DNA of 64,000 bases, taken from positions 4,838 to 68,837 of the forward strand of contig JBBDKM010000057.1 in the NCBI GenBank assembly GCA_040879385.1, read 5' to 3'. The stretch is from Thermoanaerobaculia bacterium (GTDB lineage Bacteria; Acidobacteriota; Thermoanaerobaculia; UBA5066; Gp7-AA6). Below the pieces are notes generated by a model that saw only the letters and a program-made list of their open reading frames with translations, was not told the DNA's origin and searched no databases. Of this stretch, positions 5,585 through 41,761 are shown piece after piece; position 1 is the first letter of the stretch, and every line of letters begins with the position of its first letter. The position numbers and the translations under genes were made by a program.

Positions 5585-6405
5585 GACGCTTCCTCGACCT
5601 CGCGGAGGGCTTGCCGGAACTCGTCATCGGACATCGGCCAATAGTGCCACTTGATCTTTCCTTCCATGAAGGACACGCCCTTGCCGAATCGCGTGCGGGC
5701 GACGAGGACGTGCGGCGAGCCGGCCGGATCGAGCCGGTCGACCGTTTCCGCGAGGGCCGCGACGTCGTGCCCGTCGACCTCGTGCACGTCCCAGCCGAAG
5801 GCCCTCCAGCGAGGCGCCATGGGCGTCAGGGACAAGACGTCCTCGGTGTACCCGAAGGCCTGCTGGCCGTTCAAGTCCACGATTGCAACGAGGTTGCCGA
5901 GGCGGTGATGCGCGGCGAACATGACCGCTTCCCACAGCGAGCCCTCGTTGCATTCGGCGTCGCTCACGAGGACGAAGACTCGTCGGGAAGACCCCTGCAG
6001 CCGGGCGGCCAGCGCGGCCCCGGCGCCGATGGAGAGGCCGTGTCCGAGCGACCCGGTCGAGAACTCCACGCCGGGCAGGGTGTGCTCCGGATGGACGCCC
6101 ACGTCGCTGCCGTCCGCGCAGAACGTGTCGAGGGCTTCGGCGGTCAGCCAGTCCTTGAGCCGGAGTGCGGCGTACAGCGCGAGAGCGGCGTGTCCCTTCG
6201 AGAGGATGAAGCGGTCGCGCTCGGGATCGGCCGGACCGTCTCCCCGGAGGATCCCACCGTAGAGCGCGGCGACGATGTCGGCGATGGACAGGGCGGACCC
6301 GATGTGCCCGACATGCGCTCTCTTGGACTGCTCCAGAACAATGCGACGGATCTGCCGCGGCGAGAGGGTTCCCTTCTGCACGTTCGGTTGCTTCGATCTT
6401 AACAT
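5581..6405 (-). CDS. Transketolase, N-terminal (ThDP-binding) subunit
   Basis: GHIGSALSIADIVAALY...SKGHAALALYAAL...GSLGHGLSIGAGAAL...VSDAECNEGSLWEA (ThDP/Mg motif). Start taken at internal ATG 6405 (MLRSKQ...). Overlaps the C-subunit start by 4 nt. Confidence 0.9.
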   Translation of the reverse strand: MLRSKQPNVQKGTLSPRQIRRIVLEQSKRAHVGHIGSALSIADIVAALYGGILRGDGPADPERDRFILSKGHAALALYAALRLKDWLTAEALDTFCADGSDVGVHPEHTLPGVEFSTGSLGHGLSIGAGAALAARLQGSSRRVFVLVSDAECNEGSLWEAVMFAAHHRLGNLVAIVDLNGQQAFGYTEDVLSLTPMAPRWRAFGWDVHEVDGHDVAALAETVDRLDPAGSPHVLVARTRFGKGVSFMEGKIKWHYWPMSDDEFRQALREVEEAS

Positions 6406-6416
6406 GCGGCCGACAT

Positions 6417-8168: not shown

Positions 8169-9883
8169 GAGCCCGCCCCTCGAAAGGCCACGAAGACCTC
8201 GGCCCCCGTGACCCGAACCGGGCGCCGGGCGTAGTGCTCCTCGATCCAGGTGCGCGTCCGCTGCCCGTATCCCTGTCCGAAGAATCCACGCCCGTACTCG
8301 CCCGCCGGTCGTTTCACGATGACGATGACGGCCGGCCGCGCGCGCTCCAACTCCCCGATGAAGTCGCTCTCGTTCGACTCCGTCAGGTAGCCCGGGATCG
8401 AGATCTTGCGTCGCATCGGATTCGGGCGTCCGGCGAGAAAATTGACGACGCCGCCTTCGGGAATCACGACGAGCCCATCGCCCTCTCGTGTCTCCGCGCG
8501 CACCGCCGCGGCCACCGTCGTCAGCTCACCGGCCGTCGACGGGAGCGCGGACAGCATGCCGCCGGTTCCCGGCACTGGCACGCGGTCATCGGCGGCGTAC
8601 TGCATCGTCCGACCCAGGAAGGAGATGGCGATGAGAGTAGCGAGCGCACCGTCCAGGGCCGCCCGGAACCGGACGCGCACGAGCCGCTTCGTCTCCCCAG
8701 CCACGAGGACCCGCAGCAAGCCGGCCGCACACACGATGGCAATCAGGAGAGGCGGCGCCACGTAACCCGCGTCGGCGATGTGAAAGAGCCTTCGATGAGA
8801 AGCCAGCAATCCCAGGCACCCGAAGGCAACCAGGGCCGCGGCTCGCGGGCCTCGCCGCCGGACCAGGCCGGCCCCCAGGGCCAGGAGACAGAACGACGGC
8901 GCCGCGCTGAAGACGACGGCGCCCGACCCGGCACCGACCGCCGCGAGAATCAGGAGGCCCAAGAGAACGACCACCAGCCGCCGGAGCCAGCGCGCGGCCT
9001 CTGCCGGATGGGTGCCACGGGCGGCGAGCGCCCCGGCGAGCGAGATCGCGCCGATCCAGAGCGCGGTCGAGTACAAGAGAAGCGGAATGCCGTCGCGCCA
9101 ACCCCGGAAGACCGACAGCACCGACCCGACCGGCGTCTCCGCGGGGATCCCGACCAGCAACACGGGCGCCTCCCGCAGGAGTGCCGCCGGACCGGCAGCC
9201 GCAGCGAACCCTCCCAGCGTTGCGGCGAACGCCAGTGCGGCCACCCCCGCGATCCGGAGGGCCTCTCGGCGGAAGCCGCCGCGGGACCGGAGCCGGACCC
9301 ACACGGCCGCGAGCACCGACACGAGGGCGATCACGCCCCATTCGGTGCGGCAGAGTCCCGCAAGGCCGACGCAGACGCCCGCCGCCACATTCCTCCCCAT
9401 CGCGCGCCCGGAGCCGGTCCCCGAGGCGAGCCCGCACGCAACGAGCGCGAAGCCCGCGGGATGCCAGATCCGGTATCCCATGCCCAGGATGGCGCCGCCC
9501 GAGTTGGGCATGAAGACGAGAGTCGGGACGGCCAGCGCGGTCCACAGCGAGGCCCCGCGCCGATCGGTCAGTTGTCGCAAAGCGAAATGCAGGGCCGCCA
9601 GAACACCGCAGGCCCCCGCGGCTCCGGAGAACGCCAACGTCGAAAAGCTCGATCCAAGGAGACGAAAGAAAACCGACTGGAAATACGGCGTGAACGGACC
9701 GAACCAGTACACGACGTCCCGATAGAGCAGCGCGCCGCCCGCCAGGGCATCCGCATACAGCCACTCTGTGCCGGAATCGATGAGCGCATCGGACCACTTG
9801 CCGCGGGAAACGAGGAAGAGCGCGGCGGTCGCGGCCGCCGCTGCGCAGACGAAAACGGCCGCCGCCGTCCGCCCGCGCCTCAC
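8165..9883 (-). CDS. Polytopic membrane protein, putative GT-C-fold glycosyltransferase (paralog 2 of 6417..8168)
   Basis: Similar in size and architecture to the downstream gene: GALLYRDVVYWFGPFTPYFQSVFF loop and C-terminal VIVIVKRPAGEYGRGFFGQGYG...TWIEEHY. GTG at 9883 overlaps the kynU stop (GTGA). The 1010-aa track ORF is an over-extension through kynU in another frame. Confidence 0.5.
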   Translation of the reverse strand: MRRGRTAAAVFVCAAAAATAALFLVSRGKWSDALIDSGTEWLYADALAGGALLYRDVVYWFGPFTPYFQSVFFRLLGSSFSTLAFSGAAGACGVLAALHFALRQLTDRRGASLWTALAVPTLVFMPNSGGAILGMGYRIWHPAGFALVACGLASGTGSGRAMGRNVAAGVCVGLAGLCRTEWGVIALVSVLAAVWVRLRSRGGFRREALRIAGVAALAFAATLGGFAAAAGPAALLREAPVLLVGIPAETPVGSVLSVFRGWRDGIPLLLYSTALWIGAISLAGALAARGTHPAEAARWLRRLVVVLLGLLILAAVGAGSGAVVFSAAPSFCLLALGAGLVRRRGPRAAALVAFGCLGLLASHRRLFHIADAGYVAPPLLIAIVCAAGLLRVLVAGETKRLVRVRFRAALDGALATLIAISFLGRTMQYAADDRVPVPGTGGMLSALPSTAGELTTVAAAVRAETREGDGLVVIPEGGVVNFLAGRPNPMRRKISIPGYLTESNESDFIGELERARPAVIVIVKRPAGEYGRGFFGQGYGQRTRTWIEEHYARRPVRVTGAEVFVAFRGAGS

Positions 9884-11082
9884 GTCACCACGGCCGGCCG
9901 GTCGAGCCAGCGGCGCCAGGCTCCGGTAGCGCGGATCTCGTCGATCGCCGCGAACGCCCGGTCGAGCTCGGCGTCCTCCGTGTAGAAGTGCGGGGCCATG
10001 CGAATCCCGACTCCCGGCCGGTAGTCCACGACGACGTCCCGAGCGTTCAACTCGCGCGAGACCTCGAGCGCATTGTCGAAATCGACCGAGGCCGTGCCGG
10101 CCCGGCGGCGCGGGTCGCGAGGCGTCGAGGAACGGAAGCCGCGCGCCTCGGCGAGCGCGATCAGCCGTCCGGTCTGCCGAAGCGATTTCTCGCGAATCGC
10201 CTCGAGGCCCGCCCGCCGCACGATGCGCGGGCCCTCGCGAGCCGCGTAGAGAGCGGGCACCGCCGGCGTGCCGAGAAGAAAACGGAAGGCGTCCTGGCGG
10301 TAGCGCATGGGAGGCGCCTCGAAGGAGAACGGGGCCGGATGGGCCATCCAGCCGGTCAGCGCCGGCGTCAGGCGGGCTCGCAGCTCCGGACGCACATAGA
10401 GGAACGCGCCTCCGGGGCCGCCGCAGAGCCACTTCAGGACGCCGCCGACGAGGACATCCGCGCCGAGCGCCTCGACGTCCACGGGCAGCGTCCCGACCGA
10501 CTGATACGCGTCGAGCGCGAAGAGGGAGCCTGCCCGGCGGCACTTTTCGGCTATCGCCGCCGCATCGAGGACGAAGGCGCTCTTGAAGAGGACGTGCGAA
10601 ACCGCGACGAGCGCCGTCCGGTCGTCGATCGCGTCGCGGATCCGCTCCTCGTCGGCCGAGAGCCCGTCGCCTCCCGGCGAGGGCACGGTCACGACCTCGG
10701 CGCCGAGCCGGCGCCCGAGCGACTCGTAGACGTACCGGATCGAGGGGAATTCTCCCTCGGCCATCACGATGCGATTCCGGGGACCCGAGTAATCGAGACA
10801 CGACATCAGCACGGCCGACGCCGTGGTCACGTTCGGGAGCATCGAGACGGTTCCGGGACTCGCGCCGAAGAGCGGCGCGATCTCGTCCCCCACGGCGACG
10901 GACATCTCCCACCAGGAGTCCGCCCAGGCGCGCACGCCGCGAGTGGCCCAGGTCCCGGCGTACTCGGCGAGCGCCGCGGCGGCCGCTCGCGGCATCGCTC
11001 CGAGCGAGTTGGAAATGAGGTAGGTCGAGCTTTCGAGGATCGGAAACTCGGAGCGGTGGCGCAGGAGCGGATCGGAGGCCAT
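9880..11082 (-). CDS. kynU: Kynureninase-family PLP-dependent hydrolase
   Basis: DPLLRHRSEFPILESSTYLISNSLGAMP, WWEMSVAVGDEIAPLFGA and VLVGGVLKWLCGGPGGAFLYVRPE (PLP-lysine region) align with bacterial kynureninase (for example the YLDGNSLGARP and CTYKYLNGGPG regions of the Pseudomonas enzyme). Confidence 0.75.
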   Translation of the reverse strand: MASDPLLRHRSEFPILESSTYLISNSLGAMPRAAAAALAEYAGTWATRGVRAWADSWWEMSVAVGDEIAPLFGASPGTVSMLPNVTTASAVLMSCLDYSGPRNRIVMAEGEFPSIRYVYESLGRRLGAEVVTVPSPGGDGLSADEERIRDAIDDRTALVAVSHVLFKSAFVLDAAAIAEKCRRAGSLFALDAYQSVGTLPVDVEALGADVLVGGVLKWLCGGPGGAFLYVRPELRARLTPALTGWMAHPAPFSFEAPPMRYRQDAFRFLLGTPAVPALYAAREGPRIVRRAGLEAIREKSLRQTGRLIALAEARGFRSSTPRDPRRRAGTASVDFDNALEVSRELNARDVVVDYRPGVGIRMAPHFYTEDAELDRAFAAIDEIRATGAWRRWLDRPAVVT

Positions 11083-11271
11083 CAGCGTTCCGCGGCGCGG
11101 ACGGGCTGGCCGTTCTTGTACACGATCCGGCCGCCGGAGACGACGAGCAGAGAGTTGGGGACAGGCGGCGCGCCCGTCCCATCGATGAGTGTGGCACCCC
11201 GGATGGCGATCACCGCGGCCAGGTCGCTCGATCCGCGCAAAGCGGGCACGTTCGGGCGGGCGGGCGAAACG

Positions 11272-12675
11272 CTACTTCGCGTCGAGCGCGTGTTCCTTCT
11301 CGCGCTCCTCGTCCTCGATCTCGACCGGGTAGATGCCGGTGAAGCAGGCCGTGCAGGTCGCCTGCTGCGGCCGGCCGAAGGCTTCGAGCATGCCCTCGAC
11401 GGAGAGGTAGCCGAGTGAATCCGCCTCGATGAACTTGCGGATCTCCTCGACGGACTGGTTGGCCGCGATGAGCTCGCTCCGGGTCGGCGTGTCGATCCCG
11501 TAGTGGCAGGAGTTGACCGTCGGCGGAGAGGAGACGCGCACGTGGACCTCGCGCGCCCCCGCCTCGCGGAGCATCCGGACGATCTTGCGCGACGTCGTCC
11601 CGCGCACGATCGAATCGTCCACGAGAACGATGCGCTTGCCCTCCACGACCTCGCGCACCGGGTTCAGCTTGACCTTGACGCCGAAGTGGCGGATGGCCTG
11701 CTTGGGCTCGATGAAGGTGCGCCCGACGTAGTGATTGCGCACGAGGCCGAGCGTGAACGGGATCCCCGACTCCTCGGCGTAGCCGAGGGCGGGGTACATG
11801 CCGGAGTCCGGCACCGCGACGACGACGTCCGCCTGCGCCGGATGCTCCTTCGCCAGGCGCCGCCCGAAACCCTGCCGCGAGGCCGCGACGCTGCGCCCGA
11901 AGACCATGGAGTCCGGCCGCGCGAAGTAGACGTGCTCGAAAACGCAGGGCGTCGAGACGGGGAAGGCGAACCGGTGCGAGGAGAATCCCTCGCGCGAGAG
12001 TTTGACGATCTCGCCGGCCTCGACGTCCCGCTCGAAGCGCGCGCCGATGAGGTCGAAGGCGCACGTCTCGGAGGCGACCACCGGCGAGCCTTCCCGCACG
12101 CCGAGCGACAGCGGCCGGATCCCGTTGGGGTCGCGCGCGGCGAAGATGCCCTCGCGCGACAGGATCACCAGCGAGTAAGCCCCGCGCACTTCGAGAAGCG
12201 CGTCGGCGATGGCGCCGGTGAGCGTGGGCGCCTGGGAGCGGGCCACCAGGTGAAGGATCACCTCCGAGTCGGAGGTCGTCGTGAACAGCGCGCCTTTCGA
12301 CTCGAGCACCGCCCGGATCTCGCGGGCGTTGACGAGGTTCCCGTTGTGGGCGAGCGCGAGAGGGCCGCGCCCGGTGGCGAAGACGATCGGCTGGGCATTC
12401 TCGAGGAGCGAGGCGCCGGCCGTCGAGTAGCGCACGTGGCCGATCGCGGTCCTGCCGGGGACGCGCGAAAGCCTTGCCTCGTCAAAGACATCCGCGACGT
12501 AGCCCATCTCGCGCTCGACCCGGATCCGGCCCTCGTCGAGCGCGGCGATCCCCGCCGACTCCTGGCCCCGGTGCTGGAGGGCGTAGAGGCCGAGGTAGGC
12601 GAGATTGGCGGCGTCCTCCGAATCGCAGACTCCGAAGACTCCGCATTCGTCGGAGAAGCCACTCCGATTAGCCAT
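11272..12675 (-). CDS. purF: Amidophosphoribosyltransferase
   Basis: Propeptide MANRSGFSDE then catalytic CGVFGV. GATase-II and PRTase domains (VVAVPDSG, IVLVDDSIVRGTTS). C-terminal CxxC iron-sulfur ligands. Confidence 0.95.
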   Translation of the reverse strand: MANRSGFSDECGVFGVCDSEDAANLAYLGLYALQHRGQESAGIAALDEGRIRVEREMGYVADVFDEARLSRVPGRTAIGHVRYSTAGASLLENAQPIVFATGRGPLALAHNGNLVNAREIRAVLESKGALFTTTSDSEVILHLVARSQAPTLTGAIADALLEVRGAYSLVILSREGIFAARDPNGIRPLSLGVREGSPVVASETCAFDLIGARFERDVEAGEIVKLSREGFSSHRFAFPVSTPCVFEHVYFARPDSMVFGRSVAASRQGFGRRLAKEHPAQADVVVAVPDSGMYPALGYAEESGIPFTLGLVRNHYVGRTFIEPKQAIRHFGVKVKLNPVREVVEGKRIVLVDDSIVRGTTSRKIVRMLREAGAREVHVRVSSPPTVNSCHYGIDTPTRSELIAANQSVEEIRKFIEADSLGYLSVEGMLEAFGRPQQATCTACFTGIYPVEIEDEEREKEHALDAK

Positions 12676-12730
12676 TGGAAACCAATCTTAACACTCGAAC
12701 CGCGGGGGTTAATCCCGCGGCGGCGTCCGG

Positions 12731-13585
12731 CTACGCGTCCGGGATCCGCGTCGCCGTTTCGAGGCTCGCGCCTTGCGGAATGCCGGCGAGCCATTCGGGA
12801 TACGGCCAGTCCGACGGCTGCAGAAGCAGATGACAGCGGCCGCGGTTCGCGAGGAGCTCGGGACCGGTCAGCCGCGTCCCCCGCGCGAGGTACCAGGCGA
12901 AGTAGCCGAGCTCATCGCACCAGCGCAGCACGCGGGCGGCGTTCTCGACCATGGGCAGCTCCGGATTCGAGTGCATCTCGACGAGGAAGCGCGTCTGCCG
13001 GCGCCGCGCACAGCCGCGGCCGCCCGCGAGGACCAGCGCCTCGGCGCCCTCCACGTCGACTTTCACGAAGTCGGGGAACAGGCCATAGGTGACCTCGAGC
13101 CGGTCGAGGGTGATCGTGGGAACGTCCATCGAAAGGCCCGCCTTCGCGGCCGATTGCGCATGACCCGGGTACATGCTTCCCGCCGCGCCCGTTCCGACCG
13201 TCCAGAGCCGCACGCGATCGCCCGCGCGGTCCGACACGAAGGCGCAGACGAAGCGCACTCTCTCGGACAGGCGGTTGCGAACGATGTTCTCGGCGGCAAT
13301 GGCAAGAGCCTCGGCGTTCGGCTCGACGAGCAGCAGGTCCGTGACGCCGGGCGACGCGAGCTCCAGGAGGGCCGCCTGCCCCATGTTCGAGCCGACGTCG
13401 AAGATGACCCTCGCGCGCATCGAGCAGGCGAGCAGCCAGGCATCGTCGTAATCGGGGGACTCGCGGACCACCGAGTCTCGCACCACGAGAGGCATTCCGA
13501 GCAGCGTTTCCCTCCGGAGAGGCGCCGGCAGCCGGGCTACCCGGCGCAGAAGACTCGACGCTCTCGAAAGCGGCGTACGGGTCAT
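12731..13585 (-). CDS. FkbM-family methyltransferase
   Basis: VIFDVGSNMGQAAL and KVDVEGAEALVLAGG motifs characteristic of FkbM-domain methyltransferases. Confidence 0.8.
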   Translation of the reverse strand: MTRTPLSRASSLLRRVARLPAPLRRETLLGMPLVVRDSVVRESPDYDDAWLLACSMRARVIFDVGSNMGQAALLELASPGVTDLLLVEPNAEALAIAAENIVRNRLSERVRFVCAFVSDRAGDRVRLWTVGTGAAGSMYPGHAQSAAKAGLSMDVPTITLDRLEVTYGLFPDFVKVDVEGAEALVLAGGRGCARRRQTRFLVEMHSNPELPMVENAARVLRWCDELGYFAWYLARGTRLTGPELLANRGRCHLLLQPSDWPYPEWLAGIPQGASLETATRIPDA

Positions 13586-15356: not shown

Positions 15357-16598
15357 ATGTTCGATCGTCGGATCTTCCTCAAGTCCTCCAGCCTGGCTCT
15401 CATTGGCGGCGGGCTACTGCCCAGCGTCTTCGTCCGCATGGCGCAAGCCGGCGCACCGGGAAGCCGCCGCGTCCTCGTCGCGATCTTTCAGCGGGGCGCC
15501 GTCGACGGCTTGAACGTTCTCGTGCCCTACGGAGAGAAGGCCTACTACGACGCGCGGCCGACGATCGCCGTCCCGCGACCGGGCGCGGCCGGGAAATCGG
15601 CGCTCGATCTCGACGGCTTCTTCGGGCTCCACCCGTCGCTTTCTCCGCTGCTCCCGTTTTTCCGCGACCGGTCGGCGGCCTTCGTCCACGCCGTTGGCAG
15701 CCCGGATGCGACCCGCTCGCATTTCGACGCGCAGGACTTCATGGAGTCCGGCACCCCCGGCGTCAAGTCCACACGGGACGGGTTCCTTTCGCGGGCTCTG
15801 GCCGAAAGCGTCACGAAGGCTTCCCCTCTCCGCGCGGTCGCCATGGCGCCGGCAATGCCGCGGATCCTGGCCGGAGCGTCCGGCGCGATCGCGCTGACGA
15901 GCCTCGAGGGATTCGGCATCCGCGCCGGCGCCGCCAGCGATCCGGCCGCGGAGTCCTTCGAGTCCATGTACGCGGGTGCGGCCGCCGGCGCCCTGCGGGC
16001 CACGGCCAAAGAGTCCTTCGAGGCCGTGCGACTCGTGCGGTCGGCCGACCCCTCGAAGATCTCGGCTGCGAACGGCGCCGACTATCCGCGCGGCCCCCTC
16101 GGACAATCCCTGAAACAGATCGCCCAGCTCGTCAAGGCAGACGTGGGGCTGGAGGTTGCGTTCACCGACGTCGGCGGTTGGGACACGCACGCGGGCGAGG
16201 GCGGCGGCGAGGGGCAGCTTGCCAACCGGTTGCGCGACTTTGGCCTCTCGATCGCGGCGTTCGCGAAGGATCTCGGCTCGAAAATGGCGGACGTCACGCT
16301 CGTCACGATGTCGGAGTTCGGCCGAACGGTGAAGGAGAACGGCAACCGCGGCACGGACCACGGCCACGCCAACGTCATGATGCTCCTCGGCGGAGACGTG
16401 AAAGGCGGAAAGATCTACGGGCGCTGGCCGGGGCTCGACGCCGCGCATCTTTACGAGAACCGCGACGTCGCGGTCACCACCGATTTCCGGGACGTCTTCG
16501 CGGAAGTGCTGGCCAAGCGAGCGGGGGTGGCGGACCTCGAACGAGTCTTTCCGGGTTACGACTGTGACGAAGGCAAGCGTCTGGGGTTGATCGCGTAA
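15357..16598 (+). CDS. DUF1501 domain protein (Tat-signal, sulfatase/phosphatase-like fold)
   Basis: Twin-arginine signal DRRIFLKSSSLALIGGG. DVGGWDTHAGEG and GTDHGHANVMMLLGGDVKGG are typical DUF1501 motifs. Standard DUF1800/DUF1501 gene pair. Confidence 0.85.
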   Translation: MFDRRIFLKSSSLALIGGGLLPSVFVRMAQAGAPGSRRVLVAIFQRGAVDGLNVLVPYGEKAYYDARPTIAVPRPGAAGKSALDLDGFFGLHPSLSPLLPFFRDRSAAFVHAVGSPDATRSHFDAQDFMESGTPGVKSTRDGFLSRALAESVTKASPLRAVAMAPAMPRILAGASGAIALTSLEGFGIRAGAASDPAAESFESMYAGAAAGALRATAKESFEAVRLVRSADPSKISAANGADYPRGPLGQSLKQIAQLVKADVGLEVAFTDVGGWDTHAGEGGGEGQLANRLRDFGLSIAAFAKDLGSKMADVTLVTMSEFGRTVKENGNRGTDHGHANVMMLLGGDVKGGKIYGRWPGLDAAHLYENRDVAVTTDFRDVFAEVLAKRAGVADLERVFPGYDCDEGKRLGLIA

Positions 16599-16855
16599 GG
16601 GCGGCCGTGCACATCACCGACTACGACCTCGCGCCTCCCGCCGAAGAATCCGTTCCCGCTCCCGGGGGATTTTCAACCCAAGCCCCGCTGACGCGACGCC
16701 TGAGCCCCCATCTCCATCGTCTCCTGGCTCGTCTCCGGGTCCTGGCATCCCCGTCGCGCCAACGCCCGGATCGGGCTCAGGTCGCCCTGCGCGAGTCCTC
16801 GGTTCTGAGCTACCGGCGACCCAACGCCGCGCGGTAGGCCGTACGCGGCGCTCAG

Positions 16856-16927
16856 CGCGGCGGCAGGTCAATCAGAACGACGTCGGAGCTCTCGCGGTAG
16901 CGGTCGAAGAGGATCTGCTTGCCGTCA
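16856..16927 (-). pseudogene. Relic of the last ~25 codons of a Ser/Thr-kinase-propeller paralog
   Basis: Minus translation [24 protein letters not shown] compared with the kinase-1 terminus [24 protein letters not shown] (about 85% nt identity across 17777-17850). Abuts the hepT stop codon. Confidence 0.6.
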
Positions 16928-17341
16928 GACGGCCGGCAACCGCTCGCGAATCACGGCAGCAAACTGCAACAGGTCGCCGAGACGGTTGCGCAAGACGTCC
17001 TCGACGACGGCCAGATCGACAGCGTCGTACCCGTGCACGAGAACGTTTCGGAACCCCACCATGTTTCGAAGGGTCCGCGTCAGTTCGGGCGCGATCCAGC
17101 CGCCGCGCTCGAGCAGGTCGAAGAGCTCGCGATTGGTGCGAGGCTCTCCCATCCTTTCGTCAGACACGATGTGGGAAGCCACGTCCAGGGCAGCCTGAAT
17201 CGCAAGCTGGAGAGTGTGCTCGATGAACCGCCGCTCGCGAATGTCCTGGCGGATCCTGTCCGGTTGGGCGAGCGTCCGAAGGTCGCTCACACACGTCTCG
17301 ATCTCCCCGAGCTTCTTCGCGATCAGCTCAGGGTCGGTCAT
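16925..17341 (-). CDS. hepT: HepT-family toxin (DUF86, type VII TA, tRNA-targeting RNase family)
   Basis: RNVLVHGY = Rx4HxY catalytic motif. 138 aa. 4-nt overlap with the upstream nucleotidyltransferase. Confidence 0.85.
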   Translation of the reverse strand: MTDPELIAKKLGEIETCVSDLRTLAQPDRIRQDIRERRFIEHTLQLAIQAALDVASHIVSDERMGEPRTNRELFDLLERGGWIAPELTRTLRNMVGFRNVLVHGYDAVDLAVVEDVLRNRLGDLLQFAAVIRERLPAV

Positions 17342-17742
17342 GAGACTGCGCGCTCGAGCTTCCGATAGCGGCGAAGGATCGGGAGCAAGTCGAAGTACTC
17401 GTTGCGGGCCTTCACCTCGAAGTCGATGCGCGCGGACCGGTTCGCCTCGCAGAGGAGCCGGCCGTCTCGAAGGACGCGGTGCACGAGATCGACGGGCGCC
17501 GAGTTGAGAACGACCACCTGGACCGCTCGTCCCAGGAGACGTTCTAGTTCTCCTTCGAGAGTGAGATTGGGCGAATCGAGCGTTCCACGCGGCTTGTCCG
17601 CATAGAGCACCGCCACATCCACATCGCTGCCGGGTCCGGCGGTCCCCCGGCCTTCACTGCCGAACAGATAGACCGCGATGCTCCCTCGGGGCCGCGCGGA
17701 AAAGTAATCTCGAAGCTGCTCCTCTGTGTCCGTCCCCTGCAT
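17338..17742 (-). CDS. mntA: MntA-family minimal nucleotidyltransferase antitoxin
   Basis: LFGSEGRGTAGPGSDVDVAVL = GSx10DxD nucleotidyltransferase motif. Partner of hepT. Confidence 0.85.
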   Translation of the reverse strand: MQGTDTEEQLRDYFSARPRGSIAVYLFGSEGRGTAGPGSDVDVAVLYADKPRGTLDSPNLTLEGELERLLGRAVQVVVLNSAPVDLVHRVLRDGRLLCEANRSARIDFEVKARNEYFDLLPILRRYRKLERAVS

Positions 17743-17776
17743 TCTGAACAGTATAGCGGCGGCGCCCTCGGTCTGC

Positions 17777-20434
17777 TCAGCTCGGCGGCAGGTCGATCAG
17801 GACGATGTCGGAGTTCTCGCGGAAGCGGTCGAACAGGATCTGCTTGCCGTCGGGCGAGACGTCGAAGCTCTTCATGTCGAATTCCGGCTTCAGGTTCGTC
17901 AGCTGGCGCAGGCGGCCGGTGGAAAGATCGAGCAGCCAGAAATTGATGCGCCGGAACGCTCCCTGCATGACGACCACGGACTTGCCATCCGGCAGGAATC
18001 TGTAGCGGTCGCCCCCGCCCGGGACGTCGCACTCGGGCACGGAAAAGGCCTGTCCCTCGGGCGATACGCCCCGGATCCGAACTGCCGAACCGCGTTTGGC
18101 TTCCGAGTAGAGGATGAATCTCCCGTCAGGCGACCAGACCGGATTGGAGATGACCGCGTCGACCCCGTCGACCAGGCGCACCGGCGCTCCCCCGTCCACG
18201 GGTACCTCGAGAAGCGGAGTCGCCTTCCCGTCGCTCGCGACAACGGCGATCCACTTTCCATCCGGAGACCAGGATGGGGCGCCGCCAACCCCGACGGTCT
18301 CCGCGATCGGTCGCGCGCCGGTGCCGTCGGAGGCCATCAGGTAGAGATGCGCCCGGCCTTCACGCTCAACCGGAAAGCAGATCTGGGTCCCGTCAGGAGA
18401 AATGGTTGGCGCTTGCGCCACGGTGCCGTCGCTCCCTTTCCAGAGCTCCAGCTCGGAGCCATCCTTGTGCTTCCACAGTCCGTTCGTGCCACCCTTGGAG
18501 GAGAGATACAGGAGGTAATCGGGCGCGAATCGCGGAGCGGCCGCGCTCCTGGTCGGCAGCTCGAAGTGGCTCACCCCCGACTCATCGACGACGTGGTCCG
18601 TGATGGGTGCCATCCAGAGGTTTCGGAGGGGGTTGGCCACGGTTGCGGCGAGCCGGCGCCCATCGGCACTGGCGCTGACGGACTGGTACTCCTCCACTCC
18701 CGAGGTCATCGCGTGCGGAATCCGTCGCTCGACATCCATCGCATAGAGACCCGACCCGGAGCCGTCTTCCCGCGTGGCCAAATAGATGAGTGTGCGGTCG
18801 TCGAGCATGGCCGGATAGGTCACCCGCGAATCGTGGTGAGTCAAACGCTCCGCGGCTCCGCCGGCAGAAGCGATCCGCCAGAGATCCGAGTTGTTTGGAG
18901 GTCTCCCGTGGACGAAATAGACGTAGCGGCCGTCCGGAGACCAGGTCGGAAAGTGATTGTGGATTCCAGGCTTCTCCTTGAAGATCTCCCTGGGACTCCC
19001 GCCGTTATGGTCGGCAATGAAGATCGGATCGCCCGGGTCCACCGAATGGAAGAGGAGCCTGGTCCGGTCCGGAGACCATACCGGCTCAACGGCGTTCTTG
19101 AGGAAGGGGCGCGGCAACCCGCCCATAGTGGGCACGAGCCAGGAGTCCACTAGTTTTCCGTCCTTCTGCATACGCGGCAACGACACCTGAGCCCCATCGC
19201 CGGAGAAGCCGAGGTCGCGAGTCCGTCTCCCGGCAAGGGACGGGGCCTGTCCCTTTGTGAGATTCAGGAACTCGCCGCCGCCCACCTGGCCCACCCAGGC
19301 GTCGAACGAGCCACCGCGGTCGGAGACAAAGGCCACGAACTTGCCGTCGGATGAAATCGCCGCACCGAGCTCAGAGCCTTGCCAGTCGGTGAACCGCGTG
19401 AACCGGGCGCCCGCCAGCGGGTTCTTCCAGAAATAGTCGCGCTGCCGCAGACGCCATCCCGCGATCCCGAAGGCGACGAGAATCGCCGCGGCGATTGCCG
19501 CCGGAATCCACCGGCGCCGTCGGCTCGGCGGAGCCACCGGCACAACAGCTTCGATCGCGCTCGTCGCTTCGGAGAGATGATCGCGAAGTGTCGCCAGATC
19601 GCGCGCGAGGTCTTCGGTCGACGCGTAGCGACTCTTGGGCCCCTTCGCGAGACACCGTTCGACGATCCATCGCAACTGAGTTGGAACCCTGGAGTCGATC
19701 GTTGCGATTGGCTGCGGCTCCTCCCGGATGATCGCCGTCAGTGTCTCCGGGGCCGAACCGCGGACGAACGCGGGCCGGCCCGTCGCCATCTCGTACAGAA
19801 TCGAGCCGAACGAGAACTGGTCCGACCGGAAGTCGATCGATCCGCCCGTCGCCTGCTCGGGTGACATGTAGCCGACAGTGCCGAGGATGACGCCCTCTTC
19901 GGTGGCTCCCGAGACCGTCGGCGCCTGCGTCCTCCCGCTGCCGCTCGAGTCCGGTTGTGTCAGCTTCGCCAGCCCGAAATCCAGGATCTTGACCAGGCCG
20001 TCCTCGGTCACCATGACGTTCTCGGGCTTCAGATCCCGGTGGACAATGCCCGCGGCGTGTGCCTTCCCCAGGCCTTCGGCCACCTGCGCGCCGATCTGAA
20101 GGAGACGCTTCGTCGGCAGCGCCCCCTCCGAGAGCGCCGCCCGCAACGACTCTCCCTCCACCAGCTCCATCGCGATGTAGGAGACCGAATCCGCCGACCC
20201 GATATCGTAGATCGTGACGATGTTGGGATGATTGAGCGACGAGGCCGACCGGGCCTCGCGTTCGAACCGCTTCAGACGCTCGGGGTCTGTCGAGAGCGCC
20301 GCCGGGAGCACTTTGATCGCCACCTCGCGCCCCAGCCGCGTGTCCCGCGCCCGATACACCTCCCCCATCCCGCCCGCGCCCAGCGGCGCGAGGATCTCGT
20401 AGGGGCCGAGGCGTGAGCCGGCGGAGAGTGTCAC
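17777..20434 (-). CDS. Ser/Thr protein kinase fused to TM segment and TolB/PD40-like beta-propeller (paralog 1)
   Basis: [22 protein letters not shown] (P-loop), [46 protein letters not shown]. Repeated PD40-like blades (SPDG.../WSPDG...). GTG start. Confidence 0.9.
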
Positions 20435-20460
20435 GGAGTTGGCGTAATCCTACCTTCAGC

Positions 20461-20760
20461 GCGGCGGCAGATCGATGAGAACGATGTCGGATGGCGATCC
20501 ATTTCCCGTCCGCAGACCAGGAGGGCGCTTCGCGAACTTCGAGCGACTGCGCGATCAGCCGCGCGTTCGTGCCGTTGGAGGCCATCGAGTACAGGCGCCC
20601 TCGCCCCTCACGGCGAATCACAAGGCAGATCTGGGTCCCATCGGGAGAAACCGCAGCCGCAGCGGCTACAACCCCGTCACTCCCCTTCCACAACTCCGTT
20701 TCCGAGTCGTTCTGGAACTTCCACAGTCCATCCGCCCCGCCCTTGGACCGGCAGAAATGG
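20461..20760 (-). pseudogene. 5'-truncated, internally deleted fragment of a kinase-propeller paralog
   Basis: Minus translation ...[67 protein letters not shown] is joined out of frame to [11 protein letters not shown], i.e. a deletion of about 0.5 kb relative to kinase 1. Confidence 0.6.
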
Positions 20761-20876
20761 TCATTCAGGTCTCTTTGATCGGTCCCTCGCGGCGATCGGC
20801 CACAGCGCTCCGTCTTGGATCCGGCGATCCCCTGCCCGACGCGCGTCGACGCAAGCCTGGGATCCGGAATCCGGGC

Positions 20877-21314
20877 CTACCAGCCCTTGATCACCGCGAT
20901 ATCGGGCATCGGATAGTGCTTGACGTTCTGGGTATAGATCTTCCCGCCGGTCGCCGCGGCGGTTGCGGCCAGGATCGCGTCGTTCACGTCGATGCCGTGC
21001 GACGGATGCCAGCGTCGATAGAAGGCTCCCGCCGCATCGACGATCTCGCGCGTCACCGCTTCCGTTCGAAACCGCGACAGGAGCGACAGGGTCGCGGCCT
21101 CTTCGGCGGGGCGCAGGAAGAAGACGACCTCCGCGCGATGGATCGCGCCAGTCCACAACTCGGCGCCGGGGTCCCGCGACAACTTCCGCAGCAAGCGCGC
21201 CGCCTTCGGCTCGCCGCGCAGGTGCCAGATCAGGATGTCGCTATCGACGTACGCGCGCACGCTTGCCCTGCTGGTGCCGCTCGAAGCCGCGTCGAAACGC
21301 CTCCCGCGACTCAC
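20877..21314 (-). CDS. vapC: PIN-domain toxin
   Basis: AYVDSDILIWHL (first acidic residue) and GIDVNDAILAATA (PIN motif). True start probably GTG near 21257 (VRAYVD...). Confidence 0.8.
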   Translation of the reverse strand: MSRGRRFDAASSGTSRASVRAYVDSDILIWHLRGEPKAARLLRKLSRDPGAELWTGAIHRAEVVFFLRPAEEAATLSLLSRFRTEAVTREIVDAAGAFYRRWHPSHGIDVNDAILAATAAATGGKIYTQNVKHYPMPDIAVIKGW

Positions 21315-21522
21315 GTATGGAGCTCTCCGGACGCTCGGCCCGATTCCAGGCGCCGAGCGTCTCTGACCAGACGTCCCGGGACTCCGATCCCTCGAGCTGC
21401 CGGGCCCTCAGATGAATGGCCTCCTCGAGAAACCGGCGCTTCGTCATCTTGAGCTTTCGGGTCACTCTTTCCATCTCATCCAGAGCGGCCTCGTTCAGCC
21501 GGGCCGAGAAAATCCTTTCCAT
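21241..21522 (-). CDS. vapB: Ribbon-helix-helix (CopG/VapB-type) antitoxin
   Basis: 93 aa. N-terminal MERIFSARLNEAALDEMERVTRKLKMTKRRFLEEAI fits an RHH beta-strand plus two helices. Overlaps the vapC start. Confidence 0.7.
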   Translation of the reverse strand: MERIFSARLNEAALDEMERVTRKLKMTKRRFLEEAIHLRARQLEGSESRDVWSETLGAWNRAERPESSIRESREAFRRGFERHQQGKRARVRR

Positions 21523-21529
21523 GCAGGGC

Positions 21530-21560
21530 CCCCTTACGTAAGCATGATAACGTAAGACCG
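21530..21560. promoter_or_regulatory. Candidate VapB operator: perfect palindrome CTTACGTAAG plus half-site repeat ACGTAAG
   Basis: cttacgtaagcatgataacgtaag lies about 10 nt upstream of the RHH antitoxin start. A GC-rich hairpin (gcccctgtcc...ggacaggggc, ~21602-21646) follows in the divergent truA/vapB intergenic region. Confidence 0.4.
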
Positions 21561-21695
21561 AGGTTGGGTCCGGCTGCCCTCCGCGGGGGCACGCCCGAGC
21601 GCCCCTGTCCTCCGCCCCGGTCCCGGTCGCCTCGGGGACAGGGGCCGCGATCTCCCCCGCCTTCCGCCCGCTGCCAATCCCGGTAGACTCCGCGC

Positions 21696-22427
21696 GTGCC
21701 GGCCTGGAAGCTCACGCTCGAATACGATGGAACCCGCTACAGCGGCTGGCAGTCGCAGAAGAACACGGACAAGACGGTGCAGGGCACTCTCCTGCGGGCC
21801 GCGCGGGAGGTCCTGGGCGAGGATGCCACCTGCGGCGGCGCCGGGCGCACCGACGCCGGCGTCCACGCTCTGGAGCAGGTCGCGCATCTCAAGGCGCGCA
21901 AGTCCCTCCCGGAAGGCGAGATCGCCTGGCAGCTCAACGAACGGCTCCCGTTCGACGTGCATGTCCTGTCCGTCCTCGAGGCTTCGCCCAAATTCCATGC
22001 GCGCCACGACGCGACGAGCCGGACGTACCTCTATCGGATCTCCCGGCGGCGCACAGCCTTCGACAAGCGTTTCGTCTGGTGGGTGAAGGACCGGCTCGAT
22101 GTCGCCGCAATGCGGCGCGCGGCGAAGCTCTTCGAGGGCCGGCACGACTTCGCCTCGTTTTGCGAGAACCCCGAGGGTCAGGAGTCCACACTCGTCGTCG
22201 TCGAGAAGAGCGACGTCGTCGAGGCGGGCCACGAGATCCACGTGCGAATCACCGCCTCGCATTTTCTCTGGAAGTTGGTCCGGCGCCTCGTCGGCGCGCT
22301 CGTCGAAGTCGGCCGCGGAAACCTCGACGGCCCCGGCGTCGAGGCGCTCCTGCGCGAAAAGTCCGCGGCTCCGGCGAAGTGGACGGCGCCGCCGTCGGGC
22401 TTGTTTCTCGAAAAGGTCGTCTACTGA
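21696..22427 (+). CDS. truA: tRNA pseudouridine(38-40) synthase
   Basis: WKLTLEYDGTRYSGWQSQ and GAGRTDAGVHALEQVAHL (catalytic Asp region). GTG start. Confidence 0.9.
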   Translation: MPAWKLTLEYDGTRYSGWQSQKNTDKTVQGTLLRAAREVLGEDATCGGAGRTDAGVHALEQVAHLKARKSLPEGEIAWQLNERLPFDVHVLSVLEASPKFHARHDATSRTYLYRISRRRTAFDKRFVWWVKDRLDVAAMRRAAKLFEGRHDFASFCENPEGQESTLVVVEKSDVVEAGHEIHVRITASHFLWKLVRRLVGALVEVGRGNLDGPGVEALLREKSAAPAKWTAPPSGLFLEKVVY

Positions 22428-22431
22428 GCCA

Positions 22432-23197
22432 GGATCACTGGGACCCCGATCGGTACGCGCGCTTCGCGGCCGAGCGCCGGCAGCCGTTTCTCGATCTCCT
22501 CGCGCTCGTCTCGCCGATCCCGGGGGGCCGAGCGGTCGACCTCGGCTGCGGCACGGGAGAGCTCACGCGGGAGCTGCACCAGCGGACCGCCGCCGCGGAG
22601 ACGCTCGGAGTCGACTCCTCGCCGGCCATGCTCGCGAAGTCCGAGCCGTACGCGGGCGGCGGCGTCCGGTTCGAGCCGGGAGACATCGGGACCTTCGCGC
22701 CCGAGCGGATGTTCGACCTCGTGTTCTCCAGCGCCGCGCTCCACTGGGTCGCCGATCACGACGCGCTGCTGGCCCGGCTGACCCGCGCCGTCGGTCCGGA
22801 CGGCCAGCTCGCCTTCCAGGTGCCCGACAACTTCGACCATCCCTCGCACCGCGCGGCGGAAGAGACCGCTTCGGAGGAGCCCTTCCGCTCCGAGCTCGGC
22901 GGGACGGCGCATCCCCGCAACGTTCTCGCCCCGGAGGCCTACGCGGTGATCCTCGACCGCCTCAGATACGCCGAGCAGACCGTGCGGCTGCAGGTCTACG
23001 GTCAGCGGCTCGCCTCTCGCGAGGACGTCGTCGCCTGGGTGGAGGGCTCGCTCCTCTCGGAGTACCGTCGCCGGCTCTCGCCCGAGCTGTACGCGTCCTT
23101 CGTCGACGAGTACCGGCGGGAGCTCTTTCGCAGGATCCCGGACGAGCGCCCGTACTTCTTTACCTACCGCCGCATTCTCGTCCGCGCGAGGCGATAG
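22432..23197 (+). CDS. tam: Trans-aconitate 2-methyltransferase
   Basis: SQDHWDPDRYARFAAERRQPFLDLLALV...VDLGCGTGELT...LAFQVPDNFDHPSHRAAEETA is collinear with E. coli Tam. No canonical start codon directly after the truA stop (CTG at ~22429, or GTG ~22380 overlapping truA), so the start is uncertain. Confidence 0.8.
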
Positions 23198-23212
23198 GGG
23201 GCTCTACAGCAC

Positions 23213-23403
23213 GTGTCGGCGGCTTCGATCGCCGAGCGTCGTGTCCCGCGCGCGGTACATCTCCCCCATCCCGCCGGCGCCGAGGAAAGGCAGGATCAGG
23301 CCGGGTTCTACAGGACGTCGGCGGATTTCCTCAGCCCGCGCCGAGCGGCCCGAGGATCTCGTAGGGACCGAGACGAGAGCCGGCGGAGAGTGTCACGGAG
23401 GCT
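23213..23403 (-). pseudogene. Scrambled 5' fragment (~35 codons) of a kinase paralog
   Basis: Minus strand: GTG ACA CTC ... [21 protein letters not shown], a ~45-nt insertion, then [25 protein letters not shown], then junk. The GTG overlaps the vapC stop (ccGTGAca). Confidence 0.55.
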
Positions 23404-23821
23404 TATGTTCCTTCGTTTCCTTGCGCGCTGCCCGATTGAGTGCCTCATCGAACGCCGAAAATCGGACCTGACGCGCGCCGGCCCGGTAGAGAGAGAGGTA
23501 GGACGCGAGGTGAAGGCTGTCAAAGCCGCGAAGATGATGCTTCTCGGCAAGATCTCCAGCGCTGCGGTAGACCGCCTCGCTGACCTCGATGGTCAGATAC
23601 CGGGGCCAGTCCCGCTCGAAGTCGTTCCTGGCTCGATCGTACCCGGCGCTCGTGAGTCCTCCCTCGCGTCGCTGGCGGGCGAGTGCCGCCCGCGCTTCGG
23701 CGTAGGCCACGACGGAAGTCGCTACGAGCTCGGCGCGATCCACGAGCTCCCGAATCAGGGCCGACCCTTCCTCCTCGACGTACAGCTTAACGAGGCTGCT
23801 CGTGTCGAGATAACCGATCAA
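23393..23821 (-). CDS. vapC: PIN-domain toxin
   Basis: MIGYLDTSSLVKLYVEEE and GFDSLHLASYLSL (PIN acidic residues). 142 aa. Overlaps the antitoxin by 4 nt. Confidence 0.85.
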   Translation of the reverse strand: MIGYLDTSSLVKLYVEEEGSALIRELVDRAELVATSVVAYAEARAALARQRREGGLTSAGYDRARNDFERDWPRYLTIEVSEAVYRSAGDLAEKHHLRGFDSLHLASYLSLYRAGARQVRFSAFDEALNRAARKETKEHKPP

Positions 23822-24090
23822 CGACGGTCCTCAAGGACCATCTCCGATGTCGCCTTCTTCCCCTTCCGCAAGGCCGTCCTCGCACTTCCCCGAGGTTTGC
23901 CGCCGCTCCAGTTCGCGACCCTTTCGCGGACCAGGATCCACCCCCAACGCGCCTCTTCCGTCTCTTCGATCGGTGTCAGCGCCGCGAGCGGCTCACCCCG
24001 ATCCGTCACGACGATCCGCTCGCCTTCCCCGGCGCGCCTCAAATACTCGCTCAGATGATCCTTGAGGGCCCGGACTCCAATACGTGTCAT
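23818..24090 (-). CDS. Phd/YefM-type antitoxin
   Basis: MTRIGVRALKDHLSEYLRRAGEGERIVVTDRGEPLAALTPI is a typical Phd/YefM/VapB N-terminus. GGAGG 9 nt upstream. Inverted repeat gtggcc-N19-ggccac at 24106-24136 is a plausible operator. Confidence 0.8.
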   Translation of the reverse strand: MTRIGVRALKDHLSEYLRRAGEGERIVVTDRGEPLAALTPIEETEEARWGWILVRERVANWSGGKPRGSARTALRKGKKATSEMVLEDRR

Positions 24091-24249
24091 GGGAAGTAAC
24101 CTCCTGTGGCCATAAGGATAACATTAATGAGGCCACATTGGGTCTCAGCACGACGGGCGCGTCGCCGGGTTCGGCTCCCGCGACGGCAAGAGGCTCGCTT
24201 CCGTCGACCCCCGGATCGGTTGCCTGAACGCGGCGGCCGGAGACGCCTG

Positions 24250-24952
24250 GCTACCGCCGCGCGAGCGCGCAGCCGAAGGCCTTCGTCTCGGCCGGCCGGA
24301 TCGGCTGCCCCGCGAGCAGGGCCTCAATCGCCGATTGCAGGTCCGGAGCGGACAGCTTCGAGGCGATCCGCCCGTGGTAGCGCAGCGTGCCGCTCGAGTC
24401 GAAGAGGAATGCCTCCGGTGTGCGCCGGGCGTCTAGGAGCTCCGGCGATGCGCCCCTCCGGGTTCTTGATGATGTCGAAGGTGTGGCCGTGCTCTCGCGC
24501 GTGAACCCGGGCCTCCTCCGCGGTCTCCAGCGTCCCCGAGTTGACGCCCACGAAGGTCACGCCCCTCTTTGCAAACGCCGTCGCCATGTCCCGGATCAGA
24601 TCGTTGTAGTAGTTGGAGTAGGGACAGATCGTGGATATGAAGAGGATGACGACGGCGCCGTGGGTCTTCCTCGCCTCGGCGAGCGAGAGGCGGGGCCCGT
24701 CGGCTCGCAGGCGTACCAATCAGTATTGTTGATGAGACCGACACCTTGGTCGCGCCGTCCCTCCACGGATCGAAATCGCAGCGGTTCTCGATCGCGCTGC
24801 CGAGGCGCCTGTAGGTGCCCTTCAAATCGCACGAGCCCGGAGACCGACTACAGCCGGTGCGCGATCATGCCGCGACCCGCTGGCGCTGCCAGAACCAGCA
24901 CCGTGACGACGACGGCCAAACGGTAGGAGCCGCCGGACACCATCTCAGCCAT
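24250..24952 (-). pseudogene. TlpA/ResA-like thioredoxin-fold protein (CxxS active site) disrupted by at least 3 frame breaks
   Basis: Segments in three frames: MAEMVSGGSYRLAVVVTVLVLAAPAG (membrane anchor) / FDPWRDGATKVSVSS / HGAVVILFISTICPYSNYYNDLIRDMATAFAKRGVTFVGVNSGT...DIIKNPEG / AFLFDSSGTLRYHGRIASKLSAPDLQSAIEALLAGQPIRPAETKAFGCALARR*. Confidence 0.55.
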
Positions 24953-41727: not shown

Positions 41728-41761
41728 CGAAAATCTGGCGAGATCCTATCTCGCCGCGCGG

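Follow-up and report, generated by a model that had tools for sequence, protein, structure and literature searches.

Why should toxin-antitoxin (TA) operons lie exactly at the junctions between members of a kinase gene family? This question is raised by a 64,000-nt stretch of contig JBBDKM010000057.1 (hereafter, the window), which comes from a metagenome-assembled genome (MAG) of Thermoanaerobaculia (Acidobacteriota). Three intact TA operons, MntA/HepT, VapBC-1 and VapBC-2, whose toxin activity is predicted, are found in the window, and each of the three toxin genes is followed within 0–120 nt by a significant fragment of a kinase gene. In this respect an earlier description of the DNA (the sequence-only reading), which placed TA cassettes at kinase-paralog junctions, was correct. 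It also suggested that the cassettes may have arrived by insertion. The comparison with relatives, whose contigs are cited by L numbers, points to another history: the TA operons would probably be older residents of the spacers between kinase genes, and the stubs beside them would be the scars of later deletions of the neighbouring kinases. The purpose of chromosomal TA operons is still debated, with selfish persistence, stabilization of unstable DNA, and defence under discussion.

The first operon consists of mntA (17338..17742, minus strand) and hepT (16925..17341, minus strand), with the antitoxin gene upstream of the toxin gene and a 4-nt overlap between them. MntA, a nucleotidyltransferase antitoxin of 134 aa, matches PF18765 (1.7e-16), PF01909 and the NCBIfam MntA_antitoxin equivalog NF047752 (86.5 bits vs 60). 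HepT, a predicted type VII RNase toxin of 138 aa, matches PF01934 (3.6e-29; 101 bits vs the cutoff of 23.5) and the NCBIfam HepT_toxin equivalog NF047751 (126 bits vs 60). The Rx4HxY motif of HepT (FRNVLVHGY) and the GSx10-11DxD motif of MntA (GS...DVD; GSEGRGTAGPGSDVDV) were both read in the translations. The identities to L003 at codon positions 1/2/3 are 0.81/0.92/0.54 for hepT and 0.84/0.89/0.52 for mntA, which indicates that both genes are under strong purifying selection. In the equivalog cutoffs, the gene order, the overlap, and the two motifs, the pair is the same as the known type VII HepT/MntA systems; judged from the sequence, it stands out only by where it lies, next to the 3′ end of a kinase in an array of paralogs.

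The other two operons are of the VapBC type. The vapC1 gene (20877..21260, minus strand) encodes a PIN-domain toxin of 127 aa as publicly annotated, or of 145 aa if translation began at the upstream GTG at 21314; the protein has a PIN match of 5e-15 (PF01850, 56.6 bits vs the cutoff of 23.6). Its partner vapB1 (21241..21522, minus strand), which overlaps it by 20 nt, encodes a putative antitoxin of 93 aa that looks ribbon-helix-helix (RHH)-like by eye. VapB1 matched no Pfam, NCBIfam, or PADLOC profile; the gene is the constant upstream partner of vapC1 in L004, L084, L125, L126, L128, L129, L132, L133, and L134. The vapC2 gene (23393..23821, minus strand) encodes another PIN-domain toxin, of 142 aa (PIN match 1.3e-9; PF01850, 39.1 bits vs 23.6), and overlaps by 4 nt with vapB2 (23818..24090, minus strand), which encodes a Phd/YefM-family antitoxin of 90 aa (PhdYeFM PF02604, 3.7e-10 and 39.9 bits vs 29.8; TIGR01552, 44.4 bits vs 20.8). 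These operons resemble known type II VapBC systems in that a small antitoxin gene comes before each PIN toxin gene and overlaps it, VapB2 is of the Phd family, and a palindromic operator-like sequence precedes vapB1. They differ in that VapB1 matches no curated antitoxin profile and in that the VapC1 family is unusually conserved and abundant: 1560 proteins were found at E ≤ 1e-20, and the best 120 of the 1560 are 72–99% identical. The VapC1 homologues come mostly from soil and sediment metagenomes and Thermoanaerobaculia MAGs. By sequence, the components of all these operons are unremarkable HepT/MntA and VapBC family members. Among the PADLOC profiles, MntA weakly matches the candidate PDC-S09, and HepT, VapB, and VapC have no matches.

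The kinase fragments were located by tblastn and blastn against the window. They are compared here with kinase 1 (k1; 17777..20434, minus strand), which has 885 aa with an N-terminal Ser/Thr kinase domain (Pkinase, 1.5e-48), a predicted membrane segment, and a PD40/TolB-like beta-propeller (PD40, 6e-36). Relic A (16852..16927, minus strand), which follows hepT, is the last 24 codons and the stop codon of a deleted k1-type Ser/Thr kinase, referred to as kX hereafter. Its translation is 87% identical to k1 residues 862–884 (tblastn E 1.5e-7), and over 77 nt the nucleotide identity is 91% (blastn E 3e-24); its similarity to kinase termini is accordingly significant, as had been supposed. The TGA of hepT overlaps its first codon, GAC. 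The independently assembled L002 has this junction unchanged, which excludes an artefact of assembly. A kinase terminus that keeps its stop codon and abuts the hepT stop had already been described here; only its limit needs correction, to 16852 instead of 16856.

Relic B (20451..20756, minus strand) lies between vapC1 and k1, as the sequence-only reading had stated, and its stop codon (20456–20458) is 21 nt before the k1 GTG. It is a remnant of an upstream tandem k1-type kinase (k0) and consists of the equivalent of residues ~643–744, an out-of-frame deletion, and the last 12 codons with the stop. The identity to k1 residues 643–744 is 57% (tblastn E 4e-28), and that to all k1-type kinases is 57–66%. 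The third fragment, a kinase 5′ relic downstream of vapC2 (23192..23400, minus strand), is in two pieces (tblastn E 5e-6 and 9e-5) and ends a few nucleotides past the stop of a convergent methyltransferase gene. The piece at 23334–23400 consists of a 4-nt leader and codons 1–21 followed by TGA, with 95% amino-acid identity to k1 residues 1–21 and 92.5% nucleotide identity over 67 nt; the piece at 23192–23305 corresponds to about residues 11–48, with 60% amino-acid and 79–85% nucleotide identity. The TGA of vapC2 lies inside the GTG of this relic and is read as ccGTGAca. The identity of the relic to k1, previously put at about 85%, is actually 91–92.5% for relic A and the first 5′ fragment.

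The 3′ end of k1 and relic A bracket mntA-hepT as an 82-nt direct repeat of 89% identity. Such an arrangement would be expected from a recent insertion of the cassette into kinase genes, for example a single-crossover (Campbell-type) integration of a small circle carrying the TA operon and a kinase-end fragment; direct kinase-end repeats would then stand on both sides of the TA operon, and the disrupted kinase would decay. This course of events is unlikely in our judgement. The two arms share no perfect match longer than 17 nt. Moreover, the terminal 75 nt of the k1-type kinases in the window, L003, L004, L005, and L129 show only 7–13 differences from relic A, and the 91% identity to k1 is therefore not specific to k1. 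The possibility that relic A is a duplicate of the 3′ end of k1 itself was also rejected: relic A is equally distant (7 differences in 75 nt each) from k1, from L003 k1, and from the L129 kinase described below, to whose downstream flank that of relic A is orthologous. Kinases of other genomes are thus as near to relic A as k1 is, which also speaks against the insertion.

The L129/L130 genome (GCA_964520415.1) is that of a close relative. The nucleotide identity to the window is 99% for purF, 97.6% for vapBC-1, and 95.9% for vapBC-2. L129 has an intact 888-aa k1-type kinase (7087–9753) directly upstream of its DUF1501 gene. Window positions 16926–13642 align with L129 positions 9679–12945 at 89.5% over 3288 nt; this block of homology begins at the first base of relic A, inside the L129 kinase, and the sequences past both stop codons are homologous. 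The L129 kinase is only 73.7% identical to k1. Relic A is therefore what remains of a different paralog, kX, rather than of k1, which speaks against the insertion described above. The window keeps k1 and has lost kX, and L129 keeps kX: the loss is reciprocal. The two vapBC operons, the methyltransferase-truA pair, and the side from DUF1501 to purF are conserved as blocks between the two genomes, and the segments between these blocks are replaced. The possibility that L129 kX is a recent recombinant of k1 and kX was rejected, no segment reaching an identity of ≥ 90%. No convincing footprint of the mntA promoter or start, which would be a sign of a clean loop-out of mntA-hepT, was found in L129. 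Two earlier suggestions are wholly or partly upheld. One, that the relics are not fresh target-site duplications, is supported. Another is that mntA-hepT occupies the space of an almost wholly deleted paralog; this holds insofar as relic A is what is left of such a paralog, and the arrival of the cassette as an insertion is not supported.

Separate observations were made on the ends of the k1-type kinases, which were compared across paralogs and genomes (the five sources named above). Over the terminal 75 nt (window 17777–17851) and the initial ~65 nt (20372–20438), the nucleotide identity is 85–92%, against only 66–77% for the bodies. In the 3′ 75 nt, 4 third-position differences are found in 25 codons vs ~10 expected, that is, synonymous changes are fewer. 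The conserved ends may be a product of gene conversion, or they may carry a signal in the nucleotides themselves, for instance for translational coupling with the gene that follows. In addition, nt 400–600 of k1 (window 19834–20034) are 94% identical to the L003 orthologue, against 75% overall, which suggests a mosaic or gene-conversion tract. The catalytic domain (k1 residues 10–290) scores up to 304 bits against the PADLOC PD-T4-6 defence-kinase models; this match is not taken as evidence of a defence role, because it is confined to the generic kinase domain.

The relative ages of the cassette and of the kX deletion can be estimated from L003. The k1-mntA-hepT segment is colinear with L003 over 3.5 kb (76%), with amino-acid identities of 82% for HepT and 80% for MntA, and in L003 hepT is followed by DUF1501 with no relic between them, so the second repeat that an insertion would leave is missing there. 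The four-fold degenerate sites of the window and L003 are 48–57% identical, which is near saturation, but relic A shows only 3–4 derived changes in 75 nt from the family consensus. It follows that the deletion of kX would be much younger than the position of mntA-hepT. Unless the relic is under selection, it would have been non-coding for a small fraction of the time during which mntA-hepT has followed a k1-type kinase. The arrangement shared with L003 and the younger deletion speak against the arrival of this cassette by insertion. Other relatives carry more of a kinase at this junction: L082 has an intact kinase 126 nt after hepT, followed by DUF1501, DUF1800, and purF, and L085 has a kinase 5′ end 21 nt after hepT.

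The junctions of the two vapBC operons were examined in the same manner. In L058, an intact 872-aa kinase begins 24 nt after vapC2. L084 and L129/L130 carry differently eroded versions of the orthologous 5′ stub after vapC2. L084 and L058 keep an earlier TAG that ends vapC2; this TAG is lost in the window and L129, where the VapC2 C-terminus runs 3 codons longer, to the TGA inside the kinase GTG. Since the ancestral TAG was lost, the position of the vapC2 stop inside the relic GTG, which had been described correctly, is a secondary effect rather than a signature of insertion. An intact kinase comes 15 nt after vapC1 in L125 and 29 nt after it in L132 and L133. L003 has an intact kinase at the position of relic B. 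In L129, a relic follows the same short upstream sequence as relic B, with a different internal deletion. The different internal deletions in the window and L129, in relic B and in the 5′ relic, indicate that the relics erode independently in separate lineages. That vapC2 and vapC1 precede intact kinases in other genomes weakens the case for an insertion of the vapBC operons, as the L003 arrangement does for mntA-hepT.

Nevertheless, several points favour insertion. In L125, the kinase downstream of vapBC-1 has its 5′ end repeated on the other side of the operon (9424–9610 and 10418–10585) over 168 nt at 96%, and none of 177 other kinase 5′ ends exceeds 84%. In L128, vapBC-1 has a kinase 5′ fragment on one side and a 3′ fragment on the other: the kinase after vapC1 there has lost its first ~700 codons, the deletion starting at the kinase start codon. 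The presence or position of TA operons also varies among relatives (L129, L004, L126, and L134), and the modules have sharp boundaries. As for a second cassette in L125, of the PemK/MazF type, no specific direct repeat was found; in the window, recombinase genes, att-like repeats, and inverted repeats were likewise looked for without success. The L125 cassette itself (18560–20384) consists of an RHH-like antitoxin and a PemK/MazF toxin, with kinase 5′ fragments on one side and, 71 nt further on, an intact kinase on the other; this is a fourth TA type with the same architecture as the TA-kinase junctions of the window.

How discrete are the TA operons as units? Similarity between genomes ends exactly at the stop codons of hepT and vapC1. 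On the upstream side, it reaches ~25 nt before mntA and ~45–130 nt before vapB1. The former limit includes a −10-like GCTATACT box ~8 nt before the mntA start codon, within the 34 nt that separate mntA from the k1 stop (17743..17776, minus strand). The box is kept upstream of 10 of 12 mntA homologues, and the sequence further upstream differs. A sigma-70 consensus scan of 16500–24500 gave no promoter calls, the GCTATACT box included, so the statements on promoters depend on conservation across genomes. The latter limit includes the vapB1 upstream block (21523..21640, minus strand), with an operator-like palindrome, CTTACGT...ACGTAAG, ~12–40 nt before the start; the palindrome is common to the window, L084, L125, and L128. 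Window positions 21639–20877 are 85.6% identical to L004 positions 9178–9928. In L004, the upstream block overlaps a clear 3′ relic of an FHA regulator (residues 187–219, E 6e-6; blastn 83%, E 5e-19); the corresponding trace upstream of vapB1 is faint and not significant in the window alone, and can be interpreted only through L004. In L084 the order of the window is kept: vapBC-2 comes first, then a kinase 5′ stub of 38 nt and vapBC-1, and after some additional TA operons mntA-hepT and purF; this TA region contains no intact kinase, truA, or DUF1501.

L084 is also of interest for its TA content as such. In 600–8600, beside purF, at least 6 TA-like modules occur in ~7.5 kb, with no kinases: vapBC-2, vapBC-1, Phd+PIN, an orphan Phd-like gene, mntA-hepT, AbrB-like+PIN, and another PIN. 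The modules other than the three of the window were assigned by tblastn similarity and by reading translations.

The history that we consider probable would run as follows. The original layout would have been kinase-TA-kinase, with the TA operons in the short spacers of a tandem array. Each operon would be a compact autonomous unit, extending from its own promoter or operator, 25–130 nt upstream of the antitoxin gene, to the toxin stop codon. The array would turn over fast, by illegitimate deletions, paralog-mediated deletions, and segment replacement, and the kinase after each toxin gene would have been deleted to a stub here, the TA operons staying intact. The survivors are the last 24 codons of kX, ~100 internal codons and the last 12 of k0, and the ~200-nt 5′ end of the kinase after vapC2. 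TA operons at paralog junctions would thus be what remains after kinases erode around older TA residents. The data show which TA genes these are and that they are intact, what the relics are and where their orthologues lie, and that relatives have intact kinases at these positions; they also show a conserved TA order, modules bounded by stop codons, and no mobility genes. We infer the direction of each event, and likewise that the operons outlast their neighbours because their loss is counter-selected (addiction, or post-segregational toxicity) or because they are useful. Addiction-type counter-selection against loss, the classical proposal, is said to have been demonstrated for integron arrays by Szekeres and colleagues in 2007 (cited in PMC2654758).

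Several facts weigh against this history. First, TA operons, too, can be lost or moved. In the close relative L129, mntA-hepT is missing entirely; L004 is without both mntA-hepT and vapBC-2, and its vapBC-1, with a 33-codon FHA 3′ stub, separates truA from the methyltransferase gene (8962–10132), two genes that are adjacent in the window, L129, and L049. Either the TA block was transposed to this place in L004, or the arrangement arose by duplication and deletion. Homologues of vapBC-1 at 77–80% identity also occur at non-kinase loci (L126 and L134), and hepT is a frameshifted fragment in L104/L105. Secondly, the kinase after hepT in L082 is k2-type, unlike the k1-type relic A; gene gain or replacement therefore also happens at the hepT junction. 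Thirdly, if a deletion ran into the 3′ part of hepT, it should do no more than inactivate the toxin, without harm to the cell, and addiction alone therefore does not explain a scar that abuts the hepT stop. Fourthly, the stop codon of the methyltransferase gene, an ordinary gene, is likewise abutted by a deletion end-point, which means that part of the precision of the scars is due to ordinary purifying selection on functional genes. Fifthly, a kinase mini-relic (41545–41733) and a kinase pseudogene (34177–35809) have no TA neighbour, and the mini-relic shows that relics form away from TA operons too. Finally, the comparison sequences are all MAG or metagenome contigs, and the ancestral states were inferred by eye rather than from a dated phylogeny. 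The check on syntenic loci proposed with the sequence-only reading thus gave variable presence and absence of TA operons: L129 and L004 are without mntA-hepT, and L084 has the same three operons in the same order.

It may be asked whether the junctions need any special explanation. Kinase or kinase-relic DNA makes up ~10 kb of the ~30-kb island in which the operons lie, about one third, and TA operons could stand beside kinase sequence by mere density. Four of the six TA flanks are kinase-derived (binomial p ~0.1), and the two relics without TA neighbours and the deletion end-point at the methyltransferase stop fit such a coincidence. We regard it as very unlikely. All 3 junctions downstream of toxin genes carry a relic, vs ~5/19 junctions overall, which gives ~10/969 (p ~0.01; a rough, post hoc figure). 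Furthermore, toxin stop and kinase start are adjacent for three unrelated TA families in L058, L082, L085, L125, L128, L129, L132, L133, and L134, although these relatives share ancestry and are not independent trials.

The same adjacency might instead be a selected one, if the TA operon were co-transcribed with the downstream kinase, either because the kinase regulates the TA operon or because the TA operon replaces the FHA regulator. The distance from toxin stop to kinase start is 0–32 nt in the window, L058, L125, L132, and L133, the two are on the same strand, and in L125, L132, and L133 vapBC-1 has an FHA gene on one side and a kinase on the other. Such functional coupling is nonetheless highly improbable: all three downstream kinases are destroyed in the window, but the TA operons are intact and under purifying selection, and the same TA families occur without kinases in L084, L126, and L134. 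Among 21 more distant hepT loci (L086–L106), weak kinase-like matches occur only in L087 and L100, and none abuts the TA operon. Tight spacing is also found between kinases, 10–21 nt in the two junctions read (relic B-k1 and L003 k0-k1).

A further idea combines elements of insertion and residence. TA operons may be specialized residents of tandem-paralog junctions, where the conserved kinase termini would serve as portable homology arms; the cassette would excise and re-integrate by host homologous recombination without a dedicated recombinase, and a resident cassette would penalize recombinational collapse of the array. The repeats of 82 nt (89%) here and of 168 nt (96%) in L125 would be its footprints. 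We hold this to be quite unlikely.

Deletion around older residents, which we prefer, accounts for the relics without a mobile element, and such an element was also searched for directly. No integrase or transposase domain was found among the ~40 open reading frames (ORFs) scanned across the 64-kb window, and no tRNA gene (0 found). The repeat search around the TA cassettes gave only kinase-derived direct repeats and chance-level inverted pairs, with no terminal inverted repeats. An insertion sequence or other element with terminal inverted repeats, and a tRNA-linked island, were rejected accordingly; for an integrative mobile element or genomic island, too, neither recombinase nor tRNA gene was found, and the repeats were kinase-derived only. 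The search of the flanks for remnants of a recombinase or attachment site, suggested earlier, gave nothing other than kinase-derived repeats, and the surmise that the TA operons ride on a mobile or defence islet finds no integrase, transposase, tRNA gene, or terminal inverted repeat in its favour.

As in integron TA cassettes, several TA operons with their own promoters persist here in a loss-prone repeat array whose other members are lost. The differences are that the window has no integrase and no attC, and that the repeat units are kinase paralogs instead of promoterless cassettes. An integron reading was rejected: no IntI-type integrase occurs among the ~40 ORFs, and what follows the toxin stops is kinase-derived in each case, with no imperfect palindrome in common of the kind expected of attC sites at cassette 3′ ends. 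The anti-deletion effect of the TA operons in the window is only inferred, and at least one close relative lost a TA operon. The stabilization of integron cassette arrays by TA operons has been revisited recently (Richard et al. 2024; PMC13108822).

The locus also resembles the birth-and-death decay of tandem paralogs, in its truncated and internally deleted copies, conserved termini, and reciprocal loss in sister genomes; it differs in that the scars are concentrated beside the TA operons. With variable islands or hotspots between core genes it shares variable content (~11 kb in L004 to ~29 kb in the window), mildly lower G+C content, and TA modules, and it differs from them in having no integrase, tRNA gene, or att site, and PADLOC matches that are generic only. 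It is therefore another example of known phenomena, TA operons in a hypervariable region and birth-and-death relics, with no new principle. Its value lies elsewhere. The locus family is a natural comparative series, in which the same three TA operons occur in a fast deleted and replaced array across related uncultured Acidobacteriota, and complete genomes could give per-gene loss rates for the TA operons vs their neighbours. Kinase stubs beside TA operons should not be read as insertion footprints.

The island is bracketed by purL (41762–44341) and purF (11272–12675) and covers ~29 kb. It contains mainly tandem FHA/OmpR-type regulator genes and transmembrane Ser/Thr kinases with beta-propeller sensor domains: 3 intact kinases (k1, k2, and k3), the pseudogene, and the mini-relic as a further remnant, together with TonB-dependent receptors and the three TA operons. 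An FHA/OmpR-type regulator gene overlaps the k2 start. The G+C content is mildly lower in the island (0.60–0.68) than in the flanks (0.68–0.72), although the 29–30 kb bin reaches 0.70. The purL-purF content differs in every relative examined, which supports the view of the region as a deletion and replacement hotspot. The earlier proposal of an insertion and deletion hotspot is upheld to this extent, and the recent insertion of cassettes is not. In L004, the interval consists of purL, FHA, kinase, methyltransferase, vapBC-1, truA, and purF.

The TA operons, the kinase relics, and k1 are all on the minus strand, so that each TA operon is on the same strand as the kinases. Read 5′ to 3′ on this strand, the upstream half consists of vapB2, vapC2, the kinase 5′ relic, the convergent methyltransferase and truA genes, vapB1, and vapC1, and the downstream half consists of relic B, k1, mntA, hepT, relic A, the convergent DUF1501 and DUF1800 genes, a methyltransferase gene, and purF. 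The methyltransferase gene of the upstream half (22430–23197, plus strand) is convergent to vapC2 and the kinase 5′ relic, and truA (21696–22427, plus strand) is 2 nt from it. The possibility that the C-terminus of this methyltransferase was rebuilt from the antisense kinase relic was rejected: the C-terminus is conserved with L004 and L049, and the kinase 5′ relic stops just past the methyltransferase stop codon.

The mini-relic (41545–41733, minus strand) lies directly after the purL stop and consists of ~50 N-terminal codons fused to ~55 C-terminal ones (tblastn: k1 residues 3–34 at 81%, E 8e-11; k2 residues 790–845, E 1e-4); at the corresponding position after purL, L004 has an FHA gene and an intact kinase. 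In the pseudogene (34177–35809, minus strand), an N-terminal part of 121 codons (84% to k2) runs directly into the counterpart of residues 440–845, with frame disruptions seen by tblastn and 8 stop codons in straight translation; L051 11324–12587 is an intact counterpart of the C-terminal part. L129 is without the FkbM-type methyltransferase gene (window 12731–13585) and without the AhpC-like gene (window 24324–24719). Beside or within the latter, short stretches at 24671–24834 match a TonB-dependent receptor in its C-terminal part (residues 696–717 and 753–769) and may be another relic.

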